Assembly (NCBI GenBank): GCA_001784285.1
Contig: MFQC01000007.1
Location: 4,197-68,196, forward strand
DNA: 64,000 bases
Direction: 5' to 3'
Origin: Candidatus Magasanikbacteria bacterium RIFCSPHIGHO2_02_FULL_48_18
GTDB lineage: Bacteria > Patescibacteriota > Patescibacteriia > Magasanikbacterales > UBA922
A model generated the notes under the pieces. That model saw nothing but the letters and a program-made list of their open reading frames with translations, was not told the origin of the DNA and ran no database searches. A program made the translations under genes and the position numbers. This document shows positions 4,736-39,483 of the stretch, piece by piece (positions within the stretch are counted from its first letter, which is position 1; each line of letters starts with the position of its first letter).

Positions 4736-6127
4736 CTATTGTCCCAAACCCCGCAATATCACATTGATCGTCCGAAGAAGAATAGACAGGTCGAGAATCA
4801 ACGATCTGTTTTTTATATAATACAAATCGTATTGCAGTTTTTGCAGGGATAATTCGAGAGTATCGGTATAATTTTGATGAAGCACTGCCCAACTGGTGAG
4901 TCCCGGCCTGACCACATGGCGGAGGGGGTAATACGGCATGCGCGCTTCCAGTTTTTCCACAATTTCCGGCCGCTCCGGTCGCGGGCCAATGAGGGTAATG
5001 TCGCGGCGCAGTAAATTCCAGCTTTGAGGCAATTCATCAAGACGGGTTTTTCGCAAGAATTTTCCAATCGGGGTTATCCTTGTATCTCCTTTTTTTGCAA
5101 ATTGTACGCCTTCTGTTTCCGCGCTACCATCTTTGGAGAGCGCATACATGGACCGGAATTTATACAAGAAAAACACGACACCGTTTTTTCCTGCCCGTTT
5201 TTGTTTTATGAGCACAGGACCGCGGGAGGTTGTTTTGATGAAGAACGCCAAAAACGGGAACAATGCAAGAAAGAAAGTCCCAAGAACGAGAGAGGCGACA
5301 ATATCAACCATGCCACGGAATCGTTCATACATGGGTCGCCGTGTATTTTTAAGATGATCCAAAAACCATCCTTCGGAGAATGTTGAGGGCGGAATTCTTC
5401 CTGTAAGCAATTCATAAAAGGAAGTGAGATCGTTTACTTGAATAGGATAAAACAACAGCTGATACAATTCTTGGAGCGCTTTGGTGTCTTTACGAAGGTG
5501 GGGGGCGATAATAATCAGTTGGGCGTGATGCCGTTCCGTAATGGAACGAATATCCGAGAGTTCATGGTAGACGGAGTATGAATGCGTGTTTTCCGCGGGC
5601 CCCTCCATGGTTGGGTCAATGAGCGCGACCACGCGGTATCCTTTTTCCGGGTGAGCAAAAAGGAGGTCGATGAGCTCATTGGTTTCGGCTGTTCGGCCGA
5701 CAAAGACGACATTGACGAGCAATGCTTCTGACAAGAGCAATGCATGAAAAGCAATGCGCCAGAGAGCGCTCAGTCCATACCCAAACAATACCGACAAGAC
5801 TAGGATGGTTTTTGGAGTAATGGAACGGCTCGGGATGCTATAAAAGAAGATGACGCTGAAAACCGTACTCATGAACGCGGCTTCCATGAATCGGCGATAC
5901 CACCCTCGCACGGTGGCTTGCCGTTCCAGATCATAGAGGCCGTTGATGTAATTGACCAATAGCCACAATACAAACACGATGCCAAAGAGCGCCGTGTGCT
6001 GTTGTATCTTGACTCCGGAAGGAATTGTCCAATATCGGATGGTGAGCGCCAATACAAAACCACATCCGAAAGAAAGTAGGTCGCCAAGGGCAAGTGTGAG
6101 TTGTTTGATGCGGTAGGACAGCGGCAT
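4736..6127 (-). CDS. undecaprenyl-phosphate sugar phosphotransferase (WbaP-like polyprenyl glycosylphosphotransferase)
   Basis: N-terminal TM segments and C-terminal bacterial sugar transferase domain ...GKNGVVFFLYKFRSM...KFLRKTRLDELPQSWNLLRRDITLIGPRPERPE... Start set at MPLSYRIKQ (6127) rather than the ORF-track start, which overlaps the next gene. Confidence 0.8.
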   Translation of the reverse strand: MPLSYRIKQLTLALGDLLSFGCGFVLALTIRYWTIPSGVKIQQHTALFGIVFVLWLLVNYINGLYDLERQATVRGWYRRFMEAAFMSTVFSVIFFYSIPSRSITPKTILVLSVLFGYGLSALWRIAFHALLLSEALLVNVVFVGRTAETNELIDLLFAHPEKGYRVVALIDPTMEGPAENTHSYSVYHELSDIRSITERHHAQLIIIAPHLRKDTKALQELYQLLFYPIQVNDLTSFYELLTGRIPPSTFSEGWFLDHLKNTRRPMYERFRGMVDIVASLVLGTFFLALFPFLAFFIKTTSRGPVLIKQKRAGKNGVVFFLYKFRSMYALSKDGSAETEGVQFAKKGDTRITPIGKFLRKTRLDELPQSWNLLRRDITLIGPRPERPEIVEKLEARMPYYPLRHVVRPGLTSWAVLHQNYTDTLELSLQKLQYDLYYIKNRSLILDLSILLRTINVILRGLGQ

Positions 6128-6187
6128 AGTTGTGGGACAGCATTGGGTCTGGTATACTACCTCCAACATCCAGAGAATATCAGGATT

Positions 6188-7723
6188 ATGAGAAAAAATC
6201 AACCTTTTTTTATTATTGCTCTTACCATTTTTTGCGTTATTCTTTCGCTTTTTTTTGTTTTCCAGGATCCTCTCATAACGGTTGCGGCGCCCCAGGGTCC
6301 TTTGCTCAGTATTCTCAAGGGCAAAACCAGCACCAAGGAGAGGACACTGACACTGTATCTCACCGGTCCTGAAAATGTAAAAGAAATGAAAATTTCAAAT
6401 GAAGTGGATTTTCCGGGCGCAAAATGGGAGCCATTTCAAAAACAAAAGGAGTGGACCTTAGACTACGGCACAGGGACCAAAACGGTCTATGCAAAGTTTA
6501 AAGATAAAAAAAATAAAGAATCCAATATTGTAAAAGACACGATTCTTTTGGATATCCCCAAAGACATGGATGTGGATTTTACCATCAATAAAAAAGCAAA
6601 AGATACGAACTCGCGTTATGTTTTTCTCGAGCTCACGTATTCTTCGGGGGTGGAAACCTTTGCTATAAGCAACACCAAGGATTTTGACCTTGCGACCGAA
6701 GCATTTGTCCAGAAAGAAGTTCCTTGGATTTTATCTTCCGGTTCAGGAGAAAAAACTGTCTTTATTCGGTTTAAAGACGCGAACAAAAAATATATCACCG
6801 TGTCGAAAAAAATTACGTACACCCAAAAAGAGCCGTTTGTTGAGGCCGGGAGCGTGCTGGTCGGACAGTCTGATTATATTTATTATATGGGATTTGACGG
6901 AAGGCTTCATCTTTTTCCAAGCATCCATGTGTTTCATTCCTGGTATGACTCCTTTGAGGATGTTTTTTTTGTCAGCGATCAAAAAATTAAAGAATATCAG
7001 ATTGGATCTCCCGTGTGTGTTCGGCCGGGAACATGGTTGCTGTCTTTTGCCGGGTCGTCGCGAGTCTATGCCGTCGAGCCGGGGTGCCAATTGCGACCCC
7101 TTATGTCCGAAACAGAGGCTGGCATCCTCTATGGATCAAATTGGAACGAGCGCCACCTTATGGTTGATACGCTTGAGAGCAGTTTTTATACGATCGTCAA
7201 CTCTGGCCCGGGCGCTCCGGCCAAACAAGGGACTGATAAAGACGCGGACGGGCTGGATGCGGACACTGAAAAAGAGTATGGATCGTCTGATTCCAAAAGA
7301 GACACGGACGCGGACGGGTTGAGCGATTATGAAGAAATTTTGTATTGGTTCACAGATCCAACCAAGAGCGATAGCGACGGCGACGGTGTGAGCGACGATA
7401 TTGAAGCCTCTTTGGGGCTGTCTCCGCTTATGATGGAAGAAGATGGCACTCTCAAAGAAGGCACTTATACCTTTCCTGCAGGCACCGTCTTTTATCACTC
7501 AAAAAAGAAACAGTATTATTACCGCCATTCCAATGGGAATGATTACGCGCTTGGGTCAAATAAGGCGGCAAAATCGTTTATCGATGCGGTTCCGCAGTCC
7601 GCGTTTGCGGCAATGCCGTCCTTTGATATGCCGGTGTCAAAGAAAATTCTCAATCTTCCCGGCGCTTTGGAAGAATTGCGATATCCTACCATTCGGGTTA
7701 AGAATCACACTATTCCTCTTTGA
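6188..7723 (+). CDS. secreted hypothetical protein with two tandem beta-sandwich-like repeats and calcium-binding DxDxDG (TSP3/EF-hand-like) repeats
   Basis: Signal-anchor MRKNQPFFIIALTIFCVILSLFFVF. Duplicated ~90-aa unit (GTKTVYAKFKDKK... / GEKTVFIRFKDANKK...). Acidic DADGLDAD...DTDADGLSDYEE...DSDGDGVSDD block. Start at internal ATG 6188; ORF-track 6101 is a TTG. Confidence 0.5.
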   Translation: MRKNQPFFIIALTIFCVILSLFFVFQDPLITVAAPQGPLLSILKGKTSTKERTLTLYLTGPENVKEMKISNEVDFPGAKWEPFQKQKEWTLDYGTGTKTVYAKFKDKKNKESNIVKDTILLDIPKDMDVDFTINKKAKDTNSRYVFLELTYSSGVETFAISNTKDFDLATEAFVQKEVPWILSSGSGEKTVFIRFKDANKKYITVSKKITYTQKEPFVEAGSVLVGQSDYIYYMGFDGRLHLFPSIHVFHSWYDSFEDVFFVSDQKIKEYQIGSPVCVRPGTWLLSFAGSSRVYAVEPGCQLRPLMSETEAGILYGSNWNERHLMVDTLESSFYTIVNSGPGAPAKQGTDKDADGLDADTEKEYGSSDSKRDTDADGLSDYEEILYWFTDPTKSDSDGDGVSDDIEASLGLSPLMMEEDGTLKEGTYTFPAGTVFYHSKKKQYYYRHSNGNDYALGSNKAAKSFIDAVPQSAFAAMPSFDMPVSKKILNLPGALEELRYPTIRVKNHTIPL

Positions 7724-10804: not shown

Positions 10805-11107
10805 TTAATTCAGCCCGGGTATATTGGGCAATCCGCCCATTTCTTTCATTTTTACAGCCATAATGCGCTGGATTTTTTTTACGGCGTCATTAAAGGCTTC
10901 TTTCAATTCTGTCTGGAGTTTTTCTTGTTTGTCTTTTGACAGCAATGCTTCATCAATCGCAAGCCCTGTGACCGTGAGATTGCCATCCATCGTGAGCACA
11001 ATGCTATCTCCCGCCTTTTTTATCGTTACCGATTCTTCAGCCAGTTTGCTTTGCAGATCTTTGGCCTGGCTACGAAGATCTTTGAATTGTTTCAATTTGT
11101 TGAACAT
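10805..11107 (-). CDS. ybaB: nucleoid-associated protein YbaB/EbfC
   Basis: 100-aa protein ending ...KIQRIMAVKMKEMGGLPNIPGLN. Classic YbaB family and position immediately upstream of recR. Confidence 0.8.
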   Translation of the reverse strand: MFNKLKQFKDLRSQAKDLQSKLAEESVTIKKAGDSIVLTMDGNLTVTGLAIDEALLSKDKQEKLQTELKEAFNDAVKKIQRIMAVKMKEMGGLPNIPGLN

Positions 11108-11154
11108 ACGATCATTGAATTATTATAATAATTGGATATTTGATATTGTCATTA

Positions 11155-12588
11155 TCAAAATGACGGGATTCGTTCCACCATTGGCGCCGCCGGGGTCATG
11201 GGCGGCTCTGCCCCGCCATATCGGGTATCAAGATCGTGAAAACTGGCTCGGGGTTCATCAAAAAATACTTTCACTTGTCCGGTAGGGCCGTTTCTGTGTT
11301 TTGCAATATGGATTTCAGCGATATGCCGCTCATCTGGCGCTATATCGTCAAGCCGATAATTTCTATCCGCCGCTTTTCGATAGATAAACATGACAACATC
11401 CGCGTCTTGTTCAATACTGCCCGATTCTCTCAAGTGCGAAAGTTTTGGGATAGCCGGTTTGGTTTGTTCCACCGCGCGAGAAAGCTGTGACAGCGCAAGA
11501 ACGGGAACGTTCAATTCGCGGGCGATGCCTTTGAGGTTTCGGCTCATTTCCGCCACTTCTTGGACACGGTTATCCGACGCGCCGCGATGCGATTCCATGA
11601 GTTGCAAGTAATCAATGATAATGAGGCCAAGCCCGTGTTCTGCTTGGAGCCGACGCGCTTTGGTCCGGATGTGCATGACCGTGTTTCCTGGGTTGTCGTC
11701 AATAAAGATTTTGGCTTCGGATAATACGCCCATGGCATGGCCGATCCGGGGAAAGTCTTGGCTGTCCGGCCGGTCTGATAAATTTCCGGTCCGCATTTTC
11801 CAGAGATCAACGCCGGCTTCGGCGCACAGAAGGCGGTCAACCAGCTGTTCTTTGCTCATTTCCAAAGAAAAGATGCCAACCGATTCTTTGCCGCGCACCC
11901 CCACATGGCGCGCGATATCAAGCGCAAACGAGGTTTTTCCAACCGATGGACGGGCGGCAAGGACGATAAGATCCGACCGCTGGAGTCCTGCGAGAAGATT
12001 ATCCAATGGATGGAATCCAGTTGCGATGCCGCGGAGTTTTCCTTTTTCTTTATGCAATTCATCAATGCGTTCAAATGCTTCGCTCAATACGCTCCGGATG
12101 GGCGCGAATGATTGTTTGAGATGTTTTTGCGTGACGCCGTACAGATATTGCTGGGCTTCATCAAGCAATTCATCCACGTTTTCTCGCTCTTCTTCATACC
12201 CAAGCCGCACCATTTCTTGGGCCGCTCTCAAGAGTTTTCGGTGAGTGGATTTTCGTCGGACGATATTCGCATATTCTTTGACATGCGCGGCTGTCGGGAC
12301 CGTATTGCTCAAAGTGACAAGGTACGTTCGGCCGCCGACTTTTTCCAGCATGCCTTTTTCTTCTAAGCGGTTGCCAAGCGTGAGGAGATCCACGGATTCA
12401 TTTTTATTGTAGAGCTCGTCCATGGTTTCAAAAATGGTTGCATTGGCGTCTTTATAAAAATCTTCCGGATCAATAATATCCGCGATTTTGATCATCGCGT
12501 CTTTGTCGAGCAATACCGAACCGAGGAGCGACATTTCTGCCTCCATATTTTGAGGTGGAATTTTTTCTCTTTGGATGATGTCAGTCAT
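11155..12588 (-). CDS. dnaB: replicative DNA helicase DnaB
   Basis: N-terminal PPQNMEAEMSLLGSVLLD, Walker A GARPSVGKTSFALDIA, RecA-like C-terminal domain. Start set at MTDIIQREK (12588); the ORF track extends to 12816, which is probably upstream read-through. Confidence 0.85.
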   Translation of the reverse strand: MTDIIQREKIPPQNMEAEMSLLGSVLLDKDAMIKIADIIDPEDFYKDANATIFETMDELYNKNESVDLLTLGNRLEEKGMLEKVGGRTYLVTLSNTVPTAAHVKEYANIVRRKSTHRKLLRAAQEMVRLGYEEERENVDELLDEAQQYLYGVTQKHLKQSFAPIRSVLSEAFERIDELHKEKGKLRGIATGFHPLDNLLAGLQRSDLIVLAARPSVGKTSFALDIARHVGVRGKESVGIFSLEMSKEQLVDRLLCAEAGVDLWKMRTGNLSDRPDSQDFPRIGHAMGVLSEAKIFIDDNPGNTVMHIRTKARRLQAEHGLGLIIIDYLQLMESHRGASDNRVQEVAEMSRNLKGIARELNVPVLALSQLSRAVEQTKPAIPKLSHLRESGSIEQDADVVMFIYRKAADRNYRLDDIAPDERHIAEIHIAKHRNGPTGQVKVFFDEPRASFHDLDTRYGGAEPPMTPAAPMVERIPSF

Positions 12589-19385: not shown

Positions 19386-20099
19386 TTACGTCGGGCCACG
19401 TGCGGCGAGCTTCTGTTTCAAGCTCAAAACCGCAAACGGTATAGCTAGGATGTACGCCGCCGTTCCTGCGTAGACCGGCCATGTGTCGAGGTTGTCGTTC
19501 GCGAGCACCAGCCCGCCGGTTCCAATGAGCTCAAGCGTGAATTTGAGCTTTCCGGACATTCTGGCCTTGAGCGCACGGTCATCGACCCCGTGGCGTGTTG
19601 CGTAGAAGTCGTCCACCCGCACGACCGCGAGCCAAACCTCAACGACGAGGAGAATGGCGATCGCGGCAAACGTCGGCAGGTGGATGTACCAGACGGCGTT
19701 CATAAAGTCCGCCGTGGCGAGCGCTCCCAGGGTCACGACGACCCAAAACGCTTTGTCGCAAAAGGCGTCGAGGAAGGCTCCCAACACGCCGTCGTGCGGG
19801 TGGCCGTTCTTTTTGTGGACCATGGCCACAAGCCCGTCCACAAAGTCGAGAACGCCCGCGACGACATAGAGCCAGAAGGCGGTCGCGGTCAGTCCGATTT
19901 TTAGAAGAACGGCGACCGGGATCGCCATGAACGTTCTGAAAATTGTGACGCGGTTTGCCGTCACGAACATGACCTCGCCGTAGAACGGAATCGAGATCGT
20001 ATACGGCAGGATCACTTCGGCGATCGGGCCAAAGAATTTGCGAAGACGGGCATAAAGTCCGCCAAAAATCGAAAGGACGAACGTTGTAAAAACTTCCAT
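19386..20099 (-). CDS. CDP-alcohol phosphatidyltransferase family protein, GC-rich copy
   Basis: Motif DFVDGLVAMVHKKNGHPHDGVLGAFLDAFCDK (D-x2-D-G...G-x3-D-x3-D, with Met in place of the usual Arg). Multi-TM. Local GC about 60% versus about 45% in flanks. AGGAGG Shine-Dalgarno (complement of ~20107-20112) about 6 nt upstream of the ATG. Confidence 0.65.
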   Translation of the reverse strand: MEVFTTFVLSIFGGLYARLRKFFGPIAEVILPYTISIPFYGEVMFVTANRVTIFRTFMAIPVAVLLKIGLTATAFWLYVVAGVLDFVDGLVAMVHKKNGHPHDGVLGAFLDAFCDKAFWVVVTLGALATADFMNAVWYIHLPTFAAIAILLVVEVWLAVVRVDDFYATRHGVDDRALKARMSGKLKFTLELIGTGGLVLANDNLDTWPVYAGTAAYILAIPFAVLSLKQKLAARGPT

Positions 20100-20294
20100 T
20101 GTGCCCTCCTCCAGGCAATGGGTTTCAATTCAAAACTGTTGTTGGTTGGTTTTGTATCATGACGTTTGAAGGAAAGCAAGGCTTTTTGAGTTTTCTGAGA
20201 TATCTGACAAAACAGAGAAAATCTAGACAACCTGTTCAAAAAAAGGTATTCTAACCGTGGAAGCTTCCACTTCTTATTTTTGTGTCCTTCTCGT

Positions 20295-20706: not shown

Positions 20707-21270
20707 ATGCCCAAGCATCTCAAAAAATTGTCAGAAGAAGTCCTTCATCAAAATCCATGGTGGACGTATAAACACGATACCTACGAAAAACCGAACGGTG
20801 AAACCGGAGATTATTATTATGCGGTATTGCCCGGCAATTCCATTATTATTCCAGTATTATCGGATGGACGATTGATTCTCACGCTTCAATACCGGTACAT
20901 TACCGAAAAAATGAGTATAGAGTTTCCCTGCGGCGGGCGGCATGATACAGAGGCGACCGCGCTTGATACCGCCAAGGCGGAATTGTTGGAAGAAACCGGC
21001 TTTACCGCTCACGAATTTATTCATATTGGAACGTTTCAGGCGTTGAATGGTGTTGTGGATGACGAAAGTCACGTGTTTCTTGCGCATATACAAGAACAGG
21101 GCGCGCCCCAGCCGGATGATACGGAAGAAATTGAAATACTTTATCGAAAGCCGGAAGAAGTGGATGAGATGATTCGAAGGAATGAAATTTGGGATGGGCA
21201 GACCATGGCCGCCTGGGCCATGGCGCACCATCATTTTTTACATAAAGAAAAAATGGTTGATGAAAGTTAG
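20707..21270 (+). CDS. NUDIX hydrolase (ADP-ribose pyrophosphatase-like), native low-GC copy
   Basis: Nudix box PCGGRHDTEATALDTAKAELLEETGF; 187 aa. Start trimmed to MPKHLKK after the HIT stop. Confidence 0.75.
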   Translation: MPKHLKKLSEEVLHQNPWWTYKHDTYEKPNGETGDYYYAVLPGNSIIIPVLSDGRLILTLQYRYITEKMSIEFPCGGRHDTEATALDTAKAELLEETGFTAHEFIHIGTFQALNGVVDDESHVFLAHIQEQGAPQPDDTEEIEILYRKPEEVDEMIRRNEIWDGQTMAAWAMAHHHFLHKEKMVDES

Positions 21271-23670: not shown

Positions 23671-24168
23671 ATGAAGGAGGAAAATAGCAAAAAAAGAATG
23701 GGAGAACGAAAAACGAATTTGGATAAACCGGTGACGCTTGGGTTGTTACTCGAGTTCACGGATGATTTTCTTATTCCACGGTTGTCTGATGTTATGTCTG
23801 ACACCATAAAAAGCGAAGTCGGAAAATCCGAACATCGAATGAAGATATATGTGGATGATAAACTCGCTCGGTTTGCGGCTGAAATAACGGGAAGGTCTGA
23901 GAAACGGTTTGAGAAGATTGATAGAAGGTTTGAAACAATGGACAAGAGGTTTGAAACAATAGAGAAGAGAATGGAGAAAGGGTTTGAAAAAGTTGATAAG
24001 AGATTTGAAAAAATGGATAAGAGGTTCGAGAATATGGATAAACGATTTGATAGATTGGAACATATTCGTGGAAGAGATGTCTTGTTCAAAGAAAAAGTTG
24101 TGGATGTATTTGAAGAGCGGGGTGTTTGTGGGCCGGATGACACGGCATATTTAAGAGGAGTCATTTGA
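23671..24168 (+). CDS. coiled-coil protein with tandem heptad DKRFExM repeats (XhlA/DUF1640-like repeat architecture); function unknown
   Basis: ...KRFEKIDRRFETMDKRFETIEKRMEKGFEKVDKRFEKMDKRFENMDKRFDRLE...; encoded by a 21-nt tandem repeat. The antisense ORFs are mirror artefacts. Confidence 0.5.
   Translation: MKEENSKKRMGERKTNLDKPVTLGLLLEFTDDFLIPRLSDVMSDTIKSEVGKSEHRMKIYVDDKLARFAAEITGRSEKRFEKIDRRFETMDKRFETIEKRMEKGFEKVDKRFEKMDKRFENMDKRFDRLEHIRGRDVLFKEKVVDVFEERGVCGPDDTAYLRGVI
23899..24060 (+). repeat. about eight tandem 21-nt coding repeats (aagaggtttgaaacaatggac-like units)
   Basis: Visible 21-nt periodicity: ...aaacggtttgagaagattgat agaaggtttgaaacaatggac aagaggtttgaaacaatagag... aagagatttgaaaaaatggat aagaggttcgagaatatggat aaacgatttgatagattggaa. 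Confidence 0.7.
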
Positions 24169-24307
24169 ATTTTGAGCCACCCCGAGGAAGATCAAAATTT
24201 TTAAACATCAAAAAACAGCGAACAGCGATGTTGGCTGTTTTTTATTTGTCTTGTACTATTGACAGTAGGTGAGGGGGTGGAATTAAACCCAAAAAAAGGA
24301 GGAAGCC

Positions 24308-24778
24308 ATGAAAGTGGCAACGCTCTGCTACGTGTTTCGGCACGGACAGGTGCTCCTGATTCGGGGCACCAAAAAGTACGCACCGCACTACGGCGTCTGG
24401 AACGGCCTCGGCGGCAAGGTCGAGGTCGGGGAGACGCCGGAAGCGTGCGTTCGAAGAGAAGTTGCCGAGGAGGGCGGTATTATCCTCGGCAACGTCCTGC
24501 TTCTCGGCCGGATGCTCGTGTCCGGCCTCGGCCCGGAGCCGTGGCTGGTTCACGTGTTTATTTCTTCCGACTTCACCGGCGAAGTGGAAGAAACCGTGGA
24601 CTTTGGCTGGTTTGACCTTGAGGAGGTGTGGGAACTCCCGCTTCTCGAGGCCGATCGCCGATACCTTCTGCCGGCCGTTTTTGCCAGGGCCGTCTTTAGC
24701 GCCTGCTTTGTGTATCAGCACGGCGTCCTTGTCGGCGGGTTCCTCGCGGAGAGGAATAACGAGGAGGAATTGAATTAG
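24308..24778 (+). CDS. NUDIX hydrolase (MutT-like), GC-rich copy
   Basis: Nudix box GGKVEVGETPEACVRREVAEEGGI. About 60% GC. Perfect AGGAGG Shine-Dalgarno (24291-24296) upstream of the ATG, followed by a strong terminator. Confidence 0.8.
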   Translation: MKVATLCYVFRHGQVLLIRGTKKYAPHYGVWNGLGGKVEVGETPEACVRREVAEEGGIILGNVLLLGRMLVSGLGPEPWLVHVFISSDFTGEVEETVDFGWFDLEEVWELPLLEADRRYLLPAVFARAVFSACFVYQHGVLVGGFLAERNNEEELN

Positions 24779-24811
24779 CCCCGATACGTATCGGGGTTGC
24801 TTGTTTTTTTT
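24779..24811 (+). terminator. rho-independent terminator
   Basis: Perfect palindrome ccccgatac/gtatcgggg (24779-24796) followed by ttgcttgtttttttt. Confidence 0.75.
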
Positions 24812-24844
24812 AGATATTCTCTATACCATAGTAAAGAGAAACCT

Positions 24845-25702
24845 ATGGATTTGTCGGTTATTACGGTCACGTGGAATTCTGCTGATTTTATAAGAGAACA
24901 GCTCCGTTCGGTTGTTTTGGGTTGCCGAACTATTTCTTTTGAACAAATTGTGGTGGATAATGCCTCAACCGACAAAACAGTGGCATTGGTGCAGAAGGAA
25001 TTCCCTCAGGTTCGGGTGATTGCCAATATGGAAAATAAAGGATTTGGCGCGGGCAATAATCAGGGTGTTGCAGTAAGTATGGGCAGGTATTTGTTATTTC
25101 TTAATGCTGATATGCGATTACACGAGGGAAGCCTTGACGCAATGGTTTCCTGGATGGACGCGCATCCGGATGTTGGTATCGCGAGTCCAAAATTAGTGGA
25201 TGAACATGGTTATATCAATTGGGACGCGTCTCCAAGACGATTTCCACGCGTATGGGAACAGGCCGCCCTCATTTTAAAATTGCCGCATCTGTTTCCGCAA
25301 CTCTTGAATGGTTATCTTATGAAAACGTTTAATTTTGAAAAAGAGCAGGTGGTTGACAGTGTCCGCGGTTCTTTTTTTTGTATGCGGCGTGAACTTGTCG
25401 ACAAACTTGGCTGGGCGTTTGATCCTCGGTATTTTCTCTGGTTTGAAGAGGTGGACGCGTGCCATGAAGCAAAACAGTTGGGATACCGAGTTATGTACAC
25501 GCCTGTTATTTCGTGTGTGGATTATATCGGCCAAAGTTTTAAACAACGCACCACGCTCTGGAAACAAAAACAATTTACCAAAAGTATGCTCACGTATTTT
25601 CAAAAATGGGAACCGTGGTGGAAATGGGTATGGATCGCGATCGCGCGGCCGATTGGGATATCGATCGTGTGGATAGGTGAGAAAGGTAAAATTCATTTTT
25701 GA
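24845..25702 (+). CDS. glycosyltransferase family 2 (GT-A fold)
   Basis: MDLSVITVTWNSADFI...VVDNASTDKT...NKGFGAGNNQG... matches DxD/GT2 signature motifs. Start trimmed to ATG 24845. Confidence 0.8.
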   Translation: MDLSVITVTWNSADFIREQLRSVVLGCRTISFEQIVVDNASTDKTVALVQKEFPQVRVIANMENKGFGAGNNQGVAVSMGRYLLFLNADMRLHEGSLDAMVSWMDAHPDVGIASPKLVDEHGYINWDASPRRFPRVWEQAALILKLPHLFPQLLNGYLMKTFNFEKEQVVDSVRGSFFCMRRELVDKLGWAFDPRYFLWFEEVDACHEAKQLGYRVMYTPVISCVDYIGQSFKQRTTLWKQKQFTKSMLTYFQKWEPWWKWVWIAIARPIGISIVWIGEKGKIHF

Positions 25703-26856: not shown

Positions 26857-27786
26857 ATGGAATATCTCACCTTTCATAATGGCACAGCAGTGCCGCAGTT
26901 GGGATTGGGGACATGGCAATCACCAGCAAGCCACGTGACAAACGCGGTTGTGTTTGCCATCCGAGACGCGGGCTACCGCCATATTGATTGCGCGGCCGTG
27001 TATAAAAACGAACCGGCGGTTGGTGACGCATTTTCTCAGCTGTTCCCGAGGGTCGTGCCAAGAGAAGACGTTTTTGTCACGAGTAAACTATGGAATTCCG
27101 CGCATCATCCTCATGATGTGCGTCCGGCTTGCTTGCAAACGCTGAAAGATCTAGAGCTCGAGTATCTTGATGTATATCTCATGCATTGGGGCATTGCCAC
27201 AAGGGGGGGGTTGGGCGGCAATTCAAAAAAAATGGATCATTTGGCGCCAGTGTCAATTCAGGAGACCTGGCACGCTATGGAAAAGTTGGTTGATGAAGGG
27301 CTGGTGCGCCATATTGGCGTCAGTAATTTTACTGGAATTATGTTGGTGGATCTTTTGACGTACGCGCGCTATCGTCCGGTTATGAATCAAATCGAACTCC
27401 ATCCATATAACGTCCAGGAGCGGTTGGTGCAGTTTTGTCAAGGCATGGGTATGTGTGTTACCGCGTATTCACCGCTTGGCAGACCTGGCAATGCGATCAC
27501 CGAGGCAGAGCCGGACGAGAAAGCGCATCATCTTTTTAACGAACCAATCATCAAAGATGTCGCCGCGTCCCTTGGAAAAACACCCGCACAAGTGGTGTTG
27601 CGGTGGGCTGTCGAGAGAGGAGTCTGTGTTATACCGAAAAGCACCTCTGAAGAACATATTATGGGTAACAGCAAGATTTTTGATTTCGCGCTAACCAATG
27701 AACAGATGCATCGGATTTCATCTTTGGATGAACATTTTCGTTTTGTTGACCCAATTGCGTGGGACGAGGTTCCGTATTTTGATTAG
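26857..27786 (+). CDS. aldo/keto reductase (AKR superfamily)
   Basis: LGLGTWQS, IDCAAVYKNE, SKLWNS, IGVSNF motifs; 309 aa. Confidence 0.85.
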   Translation: MEYLTFHNGTAVPQLGLGTWQSPASHVTNAVVFAIRDAGYRHIDCAAVYKNEPAVGDAFSQLFPRVVPREDVFVTSKLWNSAHHPHDVRPACLQTLKDLELEYLDVYLMHWGIATRGGLGGNSKKMDHLAPVSIQETWHAMEKLVDEGLVRHIGVSNFTGIMLVDLLTYARYRPVMNQIELHPYNVQERLVQFCQGMGMCVTAYSPLGRPGNAITEAEPDEKAHHLFNEPIIKDVAASLGKTPAQVVLRWAVERGVCVIPKSTSEEHIMGNSKIFDFALTNEQMHRISSLDEHFRFVDPIAWDEVPYFD

Positions 27787-36169: not shown

Positions 36170-36241
36170 GCGGGTGTCGTATAATGGCTATTACGCCAGC
36201 TTCCCAAGCTTGATACGGCGGTTCGATTCCGCTCACCCGCT
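36170..36241 (+). tRNA. tRNA-Gly (anticodon CCC)
   Basis: GCGGGTG acceptor / CACCCGC-T; anticodon loop TTCCCAA; T-arm GGCGGTTCGATTCCGCT. Hand-folded cloverleaf. Confidence 0.8.
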
Positions 36242-36262
36242 CAAATAGCATAGTCGTGTTTT

Positions 36263-36335
36263 GCCGATGTAGCTCAGCTGGTAGAGCAGACCCTTCGTAA
36301 GGGTAAGGTCAGCGGTTCGATTCCGCTCATCGGCT
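36263..36335 (+). tRNA. tRNA-Thr (anticodon CGU)
   Basis: GCCGATG acceptor / CATCGGC; D-arm GCTCAGCTGGTAGAGC; anticodon loop TTCGTAA; T-arm AGCGGTTCGATTCCGCT. Confidence 0.8.
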
Positions 36336-36360
36336 CTTCAACATTCAATACAGATACGCT

Positions 36361-36663
36361 ATGGTTGTCAAAGAATTTTTGCAATTTATAAAAGAATACA
36401 AAATTATTTCCCTTGCGATCGCATTTGTGATGGGAAGCGCGAGCACGAGCCTTGTCAATTCTCTTGTGAAAGACGTGCTCATGCCCATTCTCAATCCGAT
36501 TCTTTCCACACAATCATGGAAAGAAATAGCCCTTCACGTTGGGCCGATCAGAATTCCATATGGCTCGTTTTTGGCGGAATTGTTTAATTTTTCTATCCTC
36601 GCGCTTATCGTATTTATTGTTGCCAAAAAAATTCTCAAAGAAGAAGTCGTAAAGAAAAAATAA
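36361..36663 (+). CDS. mscL: large-conductance mechanosensitive channel
   Basis: MVVKEFLQFIKEYKIISLAIAFVMGSASTSLVNSLVKDVLMPILNPIL... with two TM helices and a C-terminal KKILKEEVVKKK tail; 100 aa. Typical MscL. Confidence 0.8.
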   Translation: MVVKEFLQFIKEYKIISLAIAFVMGSASTSLVNSLVKDVLMPILNPILSTQSWKEIALHVGPIRIPYGSFLAELFNFSILALIVFIVAKKILKEEVVKKK

Positions 36664-36670
36664 TAACCAA

Positions 36671-36700
36671 AAAATCCTCTGAAAGATCAGAGGATTTTTT
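36671..36700 (+). terminator. rho-independent terminator after mscL (bidirectional with the minus-strand gene hairpin at 36703-36740)
   Basis: aaaatcctctga / tcagaggatttt perfect 12-bp stem with 4-nt loop and U-tract. Confidence 0.8.
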
Positions 36701-36775: not shown

Positions 36776-37201
36776 CTACCCGCCCTTGGCCCGGGCGAGC
36801 TGAAGTATCCAGACGCAGACGATGGCGCACTTCATCGCCTGCTTCGCGTTGTCCGGCGTGGCGAACAGGCGCTGGGCCATGCGCCCGGCCGCGGCCGAGA
36901 TATCGCCACCATTGGCCGACATCAGAAAATCGAGCATGTGGCATTCGTTGTCCGTCAGGGCGAAAGTCTCGACGCACTCCCTCTCATCGACGGTGCATGT
37001 CTCGAGGGCCTTGGCGACCCTCCGAAAGAGTTCAATGAACATGACAGACCCGTCCGGCGCCGCGTGCCGGACGTTTGTGGTGATCAGGGCACGAATCGCG
37101 CCCTCGTTCGCGGCCTCGCGGACCAACCGGTCCACGAAGGCCTCGCCTTCCTCTTGCGTGTACATGAGCCCTCCGGTTGCGAGTTGCGTGGACGTTAGCA
37201 T
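36776..37201 (-). CDS. hypothetical protein in GC-rich islet
   Basis: 141-aa ORF with protein-like composition (MLTSTQLATGG...AAAGRMAQRLFATPDNAKQAMKCAIVCVWILQLARAKGG). True ATG. About 62% GC region. Competing +-strand ORFs here look like GC-rich frame artefacts. No function recognised. Confidence 0.4.
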   Translation of the reverse strand: MLTSTQLATGGLMYTQEEGEAFVDRLVREAANEGAIRALITTNVRHAAPDGSVMFIELFRRVAKALETCTVDERECVETFALTDNECHMLDFLMSANGGDISAAAGRMAQRLFATPDNAKQAMKCAIVCVWILQLARAKGG

Positions 37202-38986: not shown

Positions 38987-39072
38987 CTGAGTTTTCTTGG
39001 TTCTCTCAGTTTACTAAGTTACAAAAATAACTTAGTAAACTCAGTTAACTTAGATCAACTAAGAAAACTGAG
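38987..39072. repeat. nested inverted-repeat (double palindrome) element between tRNA-Gln and tRNA-Asn
   Basis: Inner IR 39005-39020 ctcagtttactaagtt / 39029-39044 aacttagtaaactcag (1 mismatch, 8-nt loop). Outer IR 38988-39003 ctgagttttcttggtt / 39057-39072 aactaagaaaactgag (2 mismatches). Direct repeats gtttactgag / gtttactaag. Confidence 0.7.
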
Positions 39073-39078
39073 ACAAAT

Positions 39079-39457
39079 TCGGCGGTAGCTCAGCGGTAGA
39101 GCAGTTGGCTGTGAGAAAAGCAGCTCTCGATAGAAATATCGGGATGAAAACGAGGTGAATTGCTGGAAGTCCTCATTCCAACGGTGGAGCAGGATAATCA
39201 GCAGCCAATCTTTTGTTCAGGGAGAGAACAGTGCTTTCGCACTGTAACCCTGTCGGAAGCAGGTTCAGAGACTATCCATTTATTGGAGTACCTTGTGCCG
39301 GACGTACATTGTCTGTCCGATACTGGGGAAGCGCCTCGCACCCTAACGTTTCCGATTCAATCGGAATTTGGCGAGGGTGATAATATAGTCCATCCTTTTG
39401 GGAAACCGGAAGACTGATGTAACCAATTGGTCGTCGGTTCGAATCCGACCCGCCGAG
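39079..39457 (+). tRNA. tRNA-Asn (anticodon GUU) interrupted by an insertion with group I intron hallmarks; exon 1 39079-39112, exon 2 39420-39457
   Basis: Joined exons give a 72-nt cloverleaf: TCGGCGG-TA-GCTCAGCGGTAGAGC-A-GTTGG-CUGU|UAA-CCAAT-TGGTC-GTCGGTTCGAATCCGAC-CCGCCGA-G. U1-A72 and G73 as in bacterial tRNA-Asn; anticodon loop CUGUUAA. Confidence 0.8.
39113..39419 (+). ncRNA. candidate group I self-splicing intron (about 307 nt, no ORF) in the tRNA-Asn anticodon loop
   Basis: P1: exon GCUGU (39108-39112) pairs with internal guide GCAGC (39120-39124), giving U.G at the 5' splice site. Core elements in canonical order: P AATTGCTGGAAG (39158-39169), Q AATCAGCAGCC (39196-39206), R GTTCAGAGACTA (39263-39274), S AATATAGTCC (39382-39391); R/S and P/Q are mutually complementary. 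Insertion ends in G (39419). Confidence 0.75.
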
Positions 39458-39458
39458 C

Positions 39459-39483
39459 AAAAAATCCCGTGAGGGATTTTTTG
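39459..39483 (+). terminator. rho-independent terminator after the tRNA cluster
   Basis: aaaatccc-gtga-gggatttt hairpin plus U-run. Confidence 0.7.

Follow-up and report, generated by a model that had tools for sequence, protein, structure and literature searches.

How did a short, GC-rich islet, carrying a single gene with a ribosome-binding site of its own, come to lie within a conserved cell-envelope glycan locus of a bacterium whose genome is otherwise of much lower guanine plus cytosine (GC) content? The question is posed by a 64-kb stretch of DNA (hereafter the window) from a Candidatus Magasanikbacteria population of the Rifle aquifer, a member of the Candidate Phyla Radiation (CPR; Patescibacteria). 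The islet, at 24259-24812 of the window, had been described in an initial annotation as a recently acquired cassette encoding a second NUDIX hydrolase. We conclude that it is very probably a horizontally acquired single-gene unit that came from an unsampled, GC-rich donor using Shine-Dalgarno (SD) sequences, and that encodes an MTH1-like NUDIX protein. It is read as a foreign capture because its codon usage is foreign and because its ribosome-binding site is of a kind that the host's own genes do not use. The atypical composition and foreign acquisition proposed at the outset are both borne out: the excess of GC at third codon positions (GC3) stands at z = +7.8, the gene is absent at the corresponding sites of 48 relatives, and it carries an SD sequence in a lineage that is devoid of them.

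The islet has the appearance of a self-contained unit, which would consist of a leader with an SD sequence, a 471-bp coding region and an intrinsic terminator. The coding region is one open reading frame (ORF) on the plus strand (24308..24778, with an ATG start and a stop codon ending at 24778) for a 156-amino-acid MTH1/NUDT1-like NUDIX hydrolase. It matches the Pfam NUDIX profile (PF00293) with E = 1.6e-19 and a score of 70.7 bits, where the cutoff is 21.1, and covers positions 4-132 of the 134 in the profile, in keeping with the single NUDIX gene of this length that had been called. The Nudix box, as read from the translation (GKVEVGETPEACVRREVAEEGGI, residues G36-I58; 24413..24481, plus strand), fits the signature GX5EX7REUXEEXGU exactly, as had also been claimed, and its residues (G36-X5-E42-X7-R50-E51-V-A-E54-E55-G-G57-I58) form invariant columns in the family alignment. 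A perfect SD sequence, AGGAGG, is indeed present on the plus strand at 24297..24302, 5 nt upstream of the ATG; its earlier placement at 24291-24296 was 6 nt off and coincides with a run of A residues. Directly past the stop codon, at 24779..24811 (plus strand), lies a strong intrinsic terminator made of a GC-rich hairpin (CCCCGATACGTATCGGGG) and a U-run, in which a perfect palindrome CCCCGATAC/GTATCGGGG at 24779-24796 is followed by TTGCTTGTTTTTTTT up to 24811. Its RNA fold of -14.8 kcal/mol (z = -3.9) was equaled by none of 200 shuffles, and it ends 33 nt upstream of the start codon of GT2a, the next gene. The position given for this terminator was correct, but its stem is 7-10 bp long with a 4-nt loop, instead of the loopless 9-bp stem originally drawn. 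The leader, a possible promoter region, occupies 24244..24296 on the plus strand, and its GC-rich stretch GGTGAGGGGGTGG begins near 24270. A TTGACA at 24260-24265 has no acceptable -10 box, a consensus scan lists no promoter site in the leader, and the 5' leader folds no better than its shuffles (z = -1.1).

The GC content amounts to 57.9% for 24259-24812 and to 60.1% for the ORF at 24308-24778, against 46.3% for the window as a whole (mean 0.463 and standard deviation 0.039 over 471-bp windows), which agrees with the figure of about 60% reported earlier; by codon position, the coding region shows GC1/2/3 values of 0.68/0.38/0.75. The expected values were obtained by back-translating the islet protein with codons used as in 38 host genes, among which observed-minus-expected GC3 has a standard deviation of 0.031. 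Under host codons the gene should have 51.3% GC, and 60.4% is observed (excess z = +7.0); its GC3 should be 0.498 and is 0.742 (excess z = +7.8 relative to the 38 host genes), with a codon log-likelihood z of -2.1. An explanation from amino-acid content alone, which the initial annotation had raised against its own proposal, fails because the GC3 excess persists after this correction, 7.8 standard deviations beyond the host genes. The k-mer profile that had been suggested as a further check places the islet among the top outliers of the window: by 3-mer distance it ranks 4th of 1269 windows, and the sole comparable outliers are two other GC-rich islets, the present one being the second of three. 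All three have a common third-position profile (C3 0.41-0.45, G3 0.31-0.40, A3 and T3 at most 0.16), as against T3 > G3 > A3 ≈ C3 in the host. Likelihood change points in GC content fall at 24316 and 24755, essentially delimiting the body of the ORF; with the first of these at about 24316, the sharp step in composition is at the ORF itself.

The strongest single clue to foreign origin is the ribosome-binding site. It had been cited as one of the self-contained expression signals that fit an acquired gene, and it is a stronger sign than was realized, as the lineage's own genes are without SD sequences. None of 51 native genes of the window (17 in the public gene calls around the islet and 34 elsewhere) has an SD sequence at its start, an SD core of 5 nt or more precedes only one of 253 conserved genes in the 48 related species, and AGGAGG occurs in ribosome-binding position across the 64 kb only at islets 1 and 2. 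Among 22 ORFs in GC-rich islets of the relatives, 7 have an SD sequence at the first start codon and a further 5 have one before an internal codon that could plausibly be the start. When SD matches of 5 nt or longer at the first start codon are counted, islet genes score 9 of 25 (the 7 from relatives and islets 1 and 2 of the window) versus 1 of about 304 native genes (Fisher p = 1.6e-10, computed with 307 native genes). In two of the related loci, L026 and L037, -10-like boxes end just 10-12 nt upstream of the GT2a ATG, and this proximity suggests that native mRNAs may be near-leaderless. A search of the literature for SD use or horizontal gene transfer among Magasanikbacteria turned up only a general report of a Parcubacteria subgroup in which the anti-SD motif is often lacking (Tsurumaki et al. 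2022, PMC9297842).

The islet occupies a variable position in an otherwise conserved Magasanikbacteria gene block. The block comprises genes for a CDP-OH transferase, a 526-aa membrane protein, HIT, NudF-like NUDIX, (cupin), RmlB and RmlD-like proteins, followed by a gap and then by GT2a, GT2b, GT2c, GT2d and an NTP-transferase. The RmlD-like/GT2a gap ranges among species from 15 bp to 4.9 kb, and the islet NUDIX is found in it in 0 of the 48 related loci. On its right the islet is bounded by GT2a (24845..25702, plus strand), the first of four native GT2 glycosyltransferase genes, with 58-69% identity in relatives. Its placement between the rml genes and the GT2 run therefore holds on the GT2 side; on the rml side a native gene for a 165-aa coiled-coil protein (23671..24168, plus strand) intervenes, which has a host-like GC content of 0.39 and no SD sequence. 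This gene contains about 7 in-frame 21-nt repeats (23878-24069) encoding (D/E)KRFExh heptads; its homologues were encountered only in L026 and L037, apart from weak PHROG matches of unknown function. It ends in a native terminator (AAAAAACAGC...GCTGTTTTTT; 24210..24243, plus strand; RNA fold -16.8 kcal/mol, z = -4.4), which bounds the insertion site on its left. In L026 and L037 the coiled-coil homologue (phmmer 2.5e-16 and 1.2e-20) directly adjoins GT2a. The same terminator follows it in L037, with only the 3' half recognizable in L026, and a spacer of 40-44 nt then leads to GT2a. In the window, about 0.53-0.57 kb of foreign DNA interrupts this spacer. The insertion would thus have entered a short, promoter-bearing spacer between the coiled-coil terminator and GT2a, within a conserved cell-envelope glycan locus.

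What the islet encodes can be predicted in some detail. In phmmer searches of the PDB, the protein matched zebrafish NUDT1 at 1e-15 (residues 2-143) and human MTH1 at 3e-13 (residues 4-138). An AlphaFold (AF2) model built from a 40-sequence alignment reached a pLDDT of 93.8 and a pTM of 0.88, and with it Foldseek recovered 526 PDB matches at E <= 0.001. Among the best 50 of these, ranks 1-49 are MTH1 and rank 50 is a bacterial MutT; the 49 MTH1 matches have TM scores of 0.81-0.86 (0.84-0.86 for the best), with 153-155 aligned columns at a TM score of 0.85. The model thus has the alpha/beta/alpha Nudix fold, and the similarity spans the full length, with the C-terminal beta-hairpin that extends past the core Nudix domain. 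Since modeled fold and sequence both match MTH1, we place the protein in the MTH1-like branch of the NUDIX superfamily. The scores against the NCBIfam MutT equivalogs TIGR00586 and NF008044 stay below their cutoffs (30.7 bits versus 97.9 and 27.5 versus 148), and for this reason the protein is not regarded as an orthologue of the E. coli-type MutT.

Comparison with the MTH1/NUDT1 enzymes of human, mouse, dog and zebrafish, which are 8-oxo-dGTP/2-oxo-dATP triphosphatases (PDB: 3q93, 5ghi, 5otn), shows both shared and divergent features. The islet protein has the same length of 156 aa, the same fold, an intact Nudix box and an intact W-N-G motif with the base-recognizing Asn (N32, equivalent to MTH1 N33), but it is only 28-32% identical to these proteins, and it is prokaryotic. 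Base recognition in MTH1 involves Asn33, Trp117, Asp119 and Asp120, along with a pocket formed by Phe72 and Phe74. In the islet protein F72/F74 are replaced by V/G and the W117/D119/D120 region reads L-E-A-D-R-R, with L or E at the W117 position and one Asp kept. Its nearest sequence relatives belong to a bacterial and archaeal family of 152-aa proteins characterized by 'MKLATLCYV...KWNGLGGK...LPLWEGD' (P0002-P0109) and annotated as 8-oxo-dGTP diphosphatases, with which it shares the N-terminus MKxATLCYV. Other than a 99% variant of its own, the nearest homologues are 42-46% identical over about 91% of the length. Most of them are unnamed metagenome proteins, and those with a named source come from Ignavibacteria, Bacteroidetes, Anaerolineales and Aenigmarchaeota, with none from the CPR. 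Three top homologues occur in ordinary, non-conserved chromosomal regions of 33-56% GC. Whereas sampled genes of the 152-aa family match their own genomes in GC content (0.34 in 0.33, 0.52 in 0.56 and 0.50 in 0.51, for three genomes and four loci), the islet gene is 14 GC points above its own. Within the family the islet protein is a long branch, with a mean identity of 39% to the other members, whose mutual identity averages 60% and each of which has a neighbor at 53% or more; it keeps 38 of the 56 columns that are at least 90% conserved. Its product would carry out Mg2+-dependent hydrolysis of a damaged or non-canonical (deoxy)nucleoside triphosphate to the monophosphate and pyrophosphate, by means of the Glu residues of the Nudix box. 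Judging from sequence and model, hydrolysis of such damaged or non-canonical nucleotides is most likely its activity. CPR organisms of this kind probably salvage nucleotides, and cleaning of the triphosphate pool would be useful there.

The low-GC NUDIX gene that had been pointed out elsewhere in the window is present at 20707..21270 (plus strand, 187 aa, about 45% GC, host-like, no SD sequence), but the duplicate function ascribed to the pair does not withstand scrutiny. This native protein is NudF/ADP-ribose pyrophosphatase-like: it matches NudE in NCBIfam at 8e-14, below the curated cutoff, and NudF/ADP-ribose pyrophosphatases of the PDB (5c7q) at 4e-20. Its gene is conserved within the HIT-NUDIX-RmlB-RmlD-like block and has the same position in many relatives. 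The two proteins belong to different subfamilies, and the BLASTP similarity between them is not significant (E = 2.9).

The islet is one of several such elements. In the window, islet 1 (19386-20099, minus strand; 58% GC, GC3 0.74, excess z = +7.2) contains a CDP-alcohol phosphatidyltransferase gene preceded by a perfect AGGAGG at 20105-20110. Its nearest homologues are 41-44% identical, and homologues at 36-42%, likewise GC-rich, are present in L022, L028 and L034. Islet 3 (36776..37201, minus strand; 64% GC, GC3 0.83, excess z = +9.8) contains an orphan gene with GGAGG 4 nt upstream of an internal ATG at codon 13, which is probably its true start; no homologue outside its own species was found among 5.8 billion proteins. 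We scanned the window and the 48 related loci, 856 kb in all, for islets at least 13 GC points above their locus, and found 42. Nine of these fall within the 34.6 kb made up by the RmlD-like/GT2a gaps, a density of about one per 3.8 kb, against about one per 25 kb in the remaining sequence. Insertions recur at the RmlD-like/GT2 junction, which is a hot spot for them.

The islets at this junction encode NUDIX proteins in L011 (two, 5349-6883) and L049 (one, 10934-11656), half-size NDP-hexose (nucleoside diphosphate-hexose) 2,3-dehydratases in L013 (11040-12393), L017 (11698-12450), L053 (11907-12524) and L040 (10935-11666), as well as several unknowns; genes of native GC content in the gaps include PGI/PMI, SLT, HAD and cupin. 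L040 has no GT2a, and its islet lies just downstream of the RmlD-like gene. The L013 dehydratase matches EvaA (4j7g) at 2e-21, and EvaA domains have the Nudix fold. The half-size dehydratases are 28-42% identical to one another, while in these four loci the adjacent RmlD-like gene shares 63-81% identity with that of the window, which suggests separate acquisitions or very fast evolution. No similarity was detected between the Nudix-fold islet genes of the relatives and the islet NUDIX, and the Nudix-fold islets are accordingly not one orthologous cassette. One gene, NUDIX216, is common to L011 and L049 by descent, as its nucleotide identity of 87.5% compares with about 90% in the flanks. It lies about 15 GC points above its hosts, and its 19 nonsynonymous versus 54 synonymous codon differences point to purifying selection. 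Amelioration is apparent in the lower-GC genome (GC3 of 0.65 versus 0.54, with 49 GC-to-AT against 20 AT-to-GC changes). Next to it, the RmlD-like genes of L011 (4302-5177) and L049 (10149-10839) have a nucleotide identity of just 65.6%, with flanks at about 90%, a pattern suggestive of allelic replacement by recombination beside the hot spot.

In several respects the locus is reminiscent of the variable surface-polysaccharide loci of the O-antigen or capsule type: a conserved rml/GT2 framework has a junction of variable content, the junction harbors accessory genes of sugar pathways (PGI/PMI, 2,3-dehydratase, cupin and FdtA-like), and the RmlD-like gene looks recombined between L011 and L049. 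It differs from them in that the atypical genes are above the genome in GC content, each with a foreign SD sequence, and in that the insert of the window is a nucleotide-pool-type NUDIX and no obvious sugar enzyme. One may speculate, though we regard it as doubtful, that the Magasanikbacteria, and neighboring Parcubacteria with them, which translate their own genes without SD pairing, repeatedly capture GC-rich, SD-bearing single genes from a common donor pool, possibly the organisms on which they live. It is equally doubtful that such captures enter by a few preferred hot spots, among which the RmlD-like/GT2 junction would have an over-representation of Nudix-fold enzymes.

Several results weigh against the reading of the islet as a horizontally acquired unit, or at least temper it. 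The donor search identified no donor, and because the closest homologue is only 46% identical, we infer the transfer from signatures and absence and not from a donor-recipient pair. None of the relatives compared exceeds 80% identity in the flanking genes. No empty site of the same species was encountered in the ten assemblies described below, and a metagenome scan with the coiled-coil protein retrieved distant repeats only. Among the genes called within 10 kb on either side there is no Pfam integrase, transposase or phage family. The only inverted repeat is the terminator palindrome, with no attC found, albeit no formal attC covariance model was run. The only repeat at the borders, GTTGGCTGTTTTTT (24230-24243) versus GTTGCTTGTTTTTT (24796-24809), matches at 12 of 14 positions, and both copies are terminator tails. 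Shuffled sequences give a match of this quality in 2.9% of cases, window pairs drawn at random in 2.3% and pairs of T-tails in 0.8%, and the repeat was rejected, at this chance level, as a target-site duplication. Lastly, the protein has 18 of the 56 conserved family positions altered, including a change of LPLWEGD to LPLLEAD, so that its substrate may differ or the constraint upon it may be relaxed.

The least credible of the competing accounts is that a GC-rich fragment was mis-joined into a CPR contig during assembly or binning. Such an error would account for the sharp composition steps confined to about 0.5 kb. However, the exact islet protein is also encoded on GCA_001783045.1 (MFQL01000009.1), in two further NCBI metagenome-assembled genomes, and in ENA and Logan assemblies of Rifle data. 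We retrieved ten assemblies from differing samples and assemblers (NCBI MFQL01, MFQO01 and DNHU01; ENA k141 contigs; Logan per-run assemblies), and the same junctions recur in all ten. Nine show no difference from the window over the islet and its flanks (100% identity) and the tenth (L007) is 99.9% identical, with 2 of 2200 bases differing, which makes a chimera very unlikely. The contigs reach 186 kb with syntenic native genes on both sides, and the insertion is cleanly intergenic and has its own terminator; the islet NUDIX is fixed in the Rifle population. A native gene, vertically inherited and made GC-rich by its amino-acid composition or by selection on its mRNA, is scarcely to be believed either. 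It is true that the protein is somewhat enriched in G/A/R/P (28% versus a family mean of 21%) and that the amino-acid-driven expectation of 51.3% GC is already 2.3 standard deviations above host genes. Against this stand the GC3 excess that survives amino-acid correction, the SD sequence in an SD-less genome, the absence at the syntenic site of 48 relatives, and the lack of CPR members among the source-named family. That the islet belongs to a formal mobile system, whether as an integron cassette, a prophage moron or a miniature transposon, is most improbable, even though it is a single, seemingly promoter-less ORF with its own terminator and has the weak 12/14 direct repeat at its borders. 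A border repeat of such quality is obtained from 2-3% of window pairs taken at random, islets 1 and 3 are without one, and the 10 kb on either side are free of integrase, transposase and phage genes. The best matches in phage and plasmid collections are at most 44% identical and of partial length, IMG/VR yielded none, and the PHROG matches of the islet protein are to generic NUDIX families only; there is also no tRNA near the islet. Nor does this single gene show the traits of a classical genomic island or prophage, namely multiple genes, integration beside a tRNA, an integrase and flanking direct repeats. The term cassette, and the direct repeats that had been suggested as a test of it, hence find no support in the sense of a mobile element. 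Phage morons, recognized by Hendrix and colleagues, are reportedly single genes of atypical composition with their own promoter and terminator, lying between genes that are adjacent in related genomes. The islet resembles them as one gene of atypical composition, with its own terminator and translation signal, between genes adjacent in relatives, but it sits in a chromosomal CPR glycan locus with no phage genes nearby and no convincing promoter. To integron cassettes it is similar as a compact, apparently promoter-less single ORF in an intergenic position, and unlike them it has no attC, integrase or cassette array and carries its own terminator.

Two further alternatives accept the foreign origin and differ as to its age or its purpose. 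The gene could have been acquired anciently, with its composition saying little about age, and we consider this a minority possibility that nevertheless deserves attention. NUDIX216 was present in the common ancestor of L011 and L049 and has remained under purifying selection and some 15 GC points above its hosts; the islet NUDIX, for its part, is fixed and invariant in all assemblies, and its protein forms a long branch. On the other hand, it retains a GC3 of 0.745 and a perfect 6-nt SD sequence, the amelioration in the L011/L049 pair is visible at such divergence, and none of the 48 sampled relatives has the gene. The word recently in the initial annotation is thereby weakened as a firm claim, since comparable islets persist across about 10-12% nucleotide divergence as long-lived, selected genes. 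It is rather unlikely, in our estimation, that the foreign NUDIX was recruited into the glycan and deoxysugar locus and acts on an NDP-sugar or a related nucleotide-linked intermediate, although selection for the Nudix fold at this locus would explain the position of the islet. Islets downstream of the RmlD-like gene in relatives do encode other Nudix-fold proteins, the locus already has a NudF-like NUDIX, RmlB, an RmlD-like reductase, an NDP-sugar transferase and four GT2 enzymes, and the substrate-pocket motif of the family is altered in the islet protein. Yet this protein is MTH1-like over its full length, its homologues elsewhere occur in unrelated, non-glycan contexts, the Nudix-fold genes of the relatives are of other subfamilies with no detectable similarity to it, and the co-location could reflect a permissive insertion hot spot.

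The preferred reading, horizontal acquisition of a single-gene unit, would then entail the following course of events. The donor would have been an SD-using organism of roughly 60% GC or more that is absent from current databases. Its gene would have been integrated by illegitimate or short-homology recombination of taken-up DNA, after the species split from all 48 sampled relatives, and would subsequently have become fixed in the Rifle population.

Certain other features of the window were noted in passing. Between GT2b and GT2c lies an aldo/keto reductase gene (26857-27786, plus strand) that none of the relatives compared has at this position; it has host-like GC content and no SD sequence, and so represents an accessory insertion unlike the GC-rich islets. 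Islet 3 is immediately preceded by genes for tRNA-Gly and tRNA-Thr (36170-36336) and then by a short MscL gene (36361-36663), with a low-GC, bidirectional terminator-like hairpin (~36665-36700) between MscL and the islet. About 50 nt past a tRNA-Gln gene, a group I intron (Rfam RF00028, 79.4 bits) occupies 39024-39412 (flanks ~38990-39460). It appears to interrupt a tRNA gene, because ARAGORN, run with introns allowed, calls an intron-split tRNA at this site and the 3' flank contains a T-arm (GGTTCGAATCC).

Taken on its own, the islet is one more transferred gene of the housekeeping type, and no major paradigm is changed by it. It is an ordinary horizontal acquisition in an interesting setting, ordinary because a divergent member of a known protein family was delivered by a known process. 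The setting is of interest as the islet marks a spot, within a conserved surface-glycan locus, at which insertions have recurred, and the repeated presence of Nudix-fold islets there hints either that such enzymes are selected for or that the species draw on one pool of donors. Moreover, in an SD-less CPR lineage the SD motif cleanly marks foreign DNA, independently of composition, and could be put to use genome-wide; it also raises the question of whether SD-led foreign genes are expressed in Parcubacteria, some of which reportedly have no anti-SD motif. If the lineage does capture genes repeatedly from a common pool, its islets would make it possible to trace, from within its own genomes, the unknown hosts or donors of this uncultured CPR lineage, and would amount to a natural experiment on SD-led genes in ribosomes that perhaps have no anti-SD.

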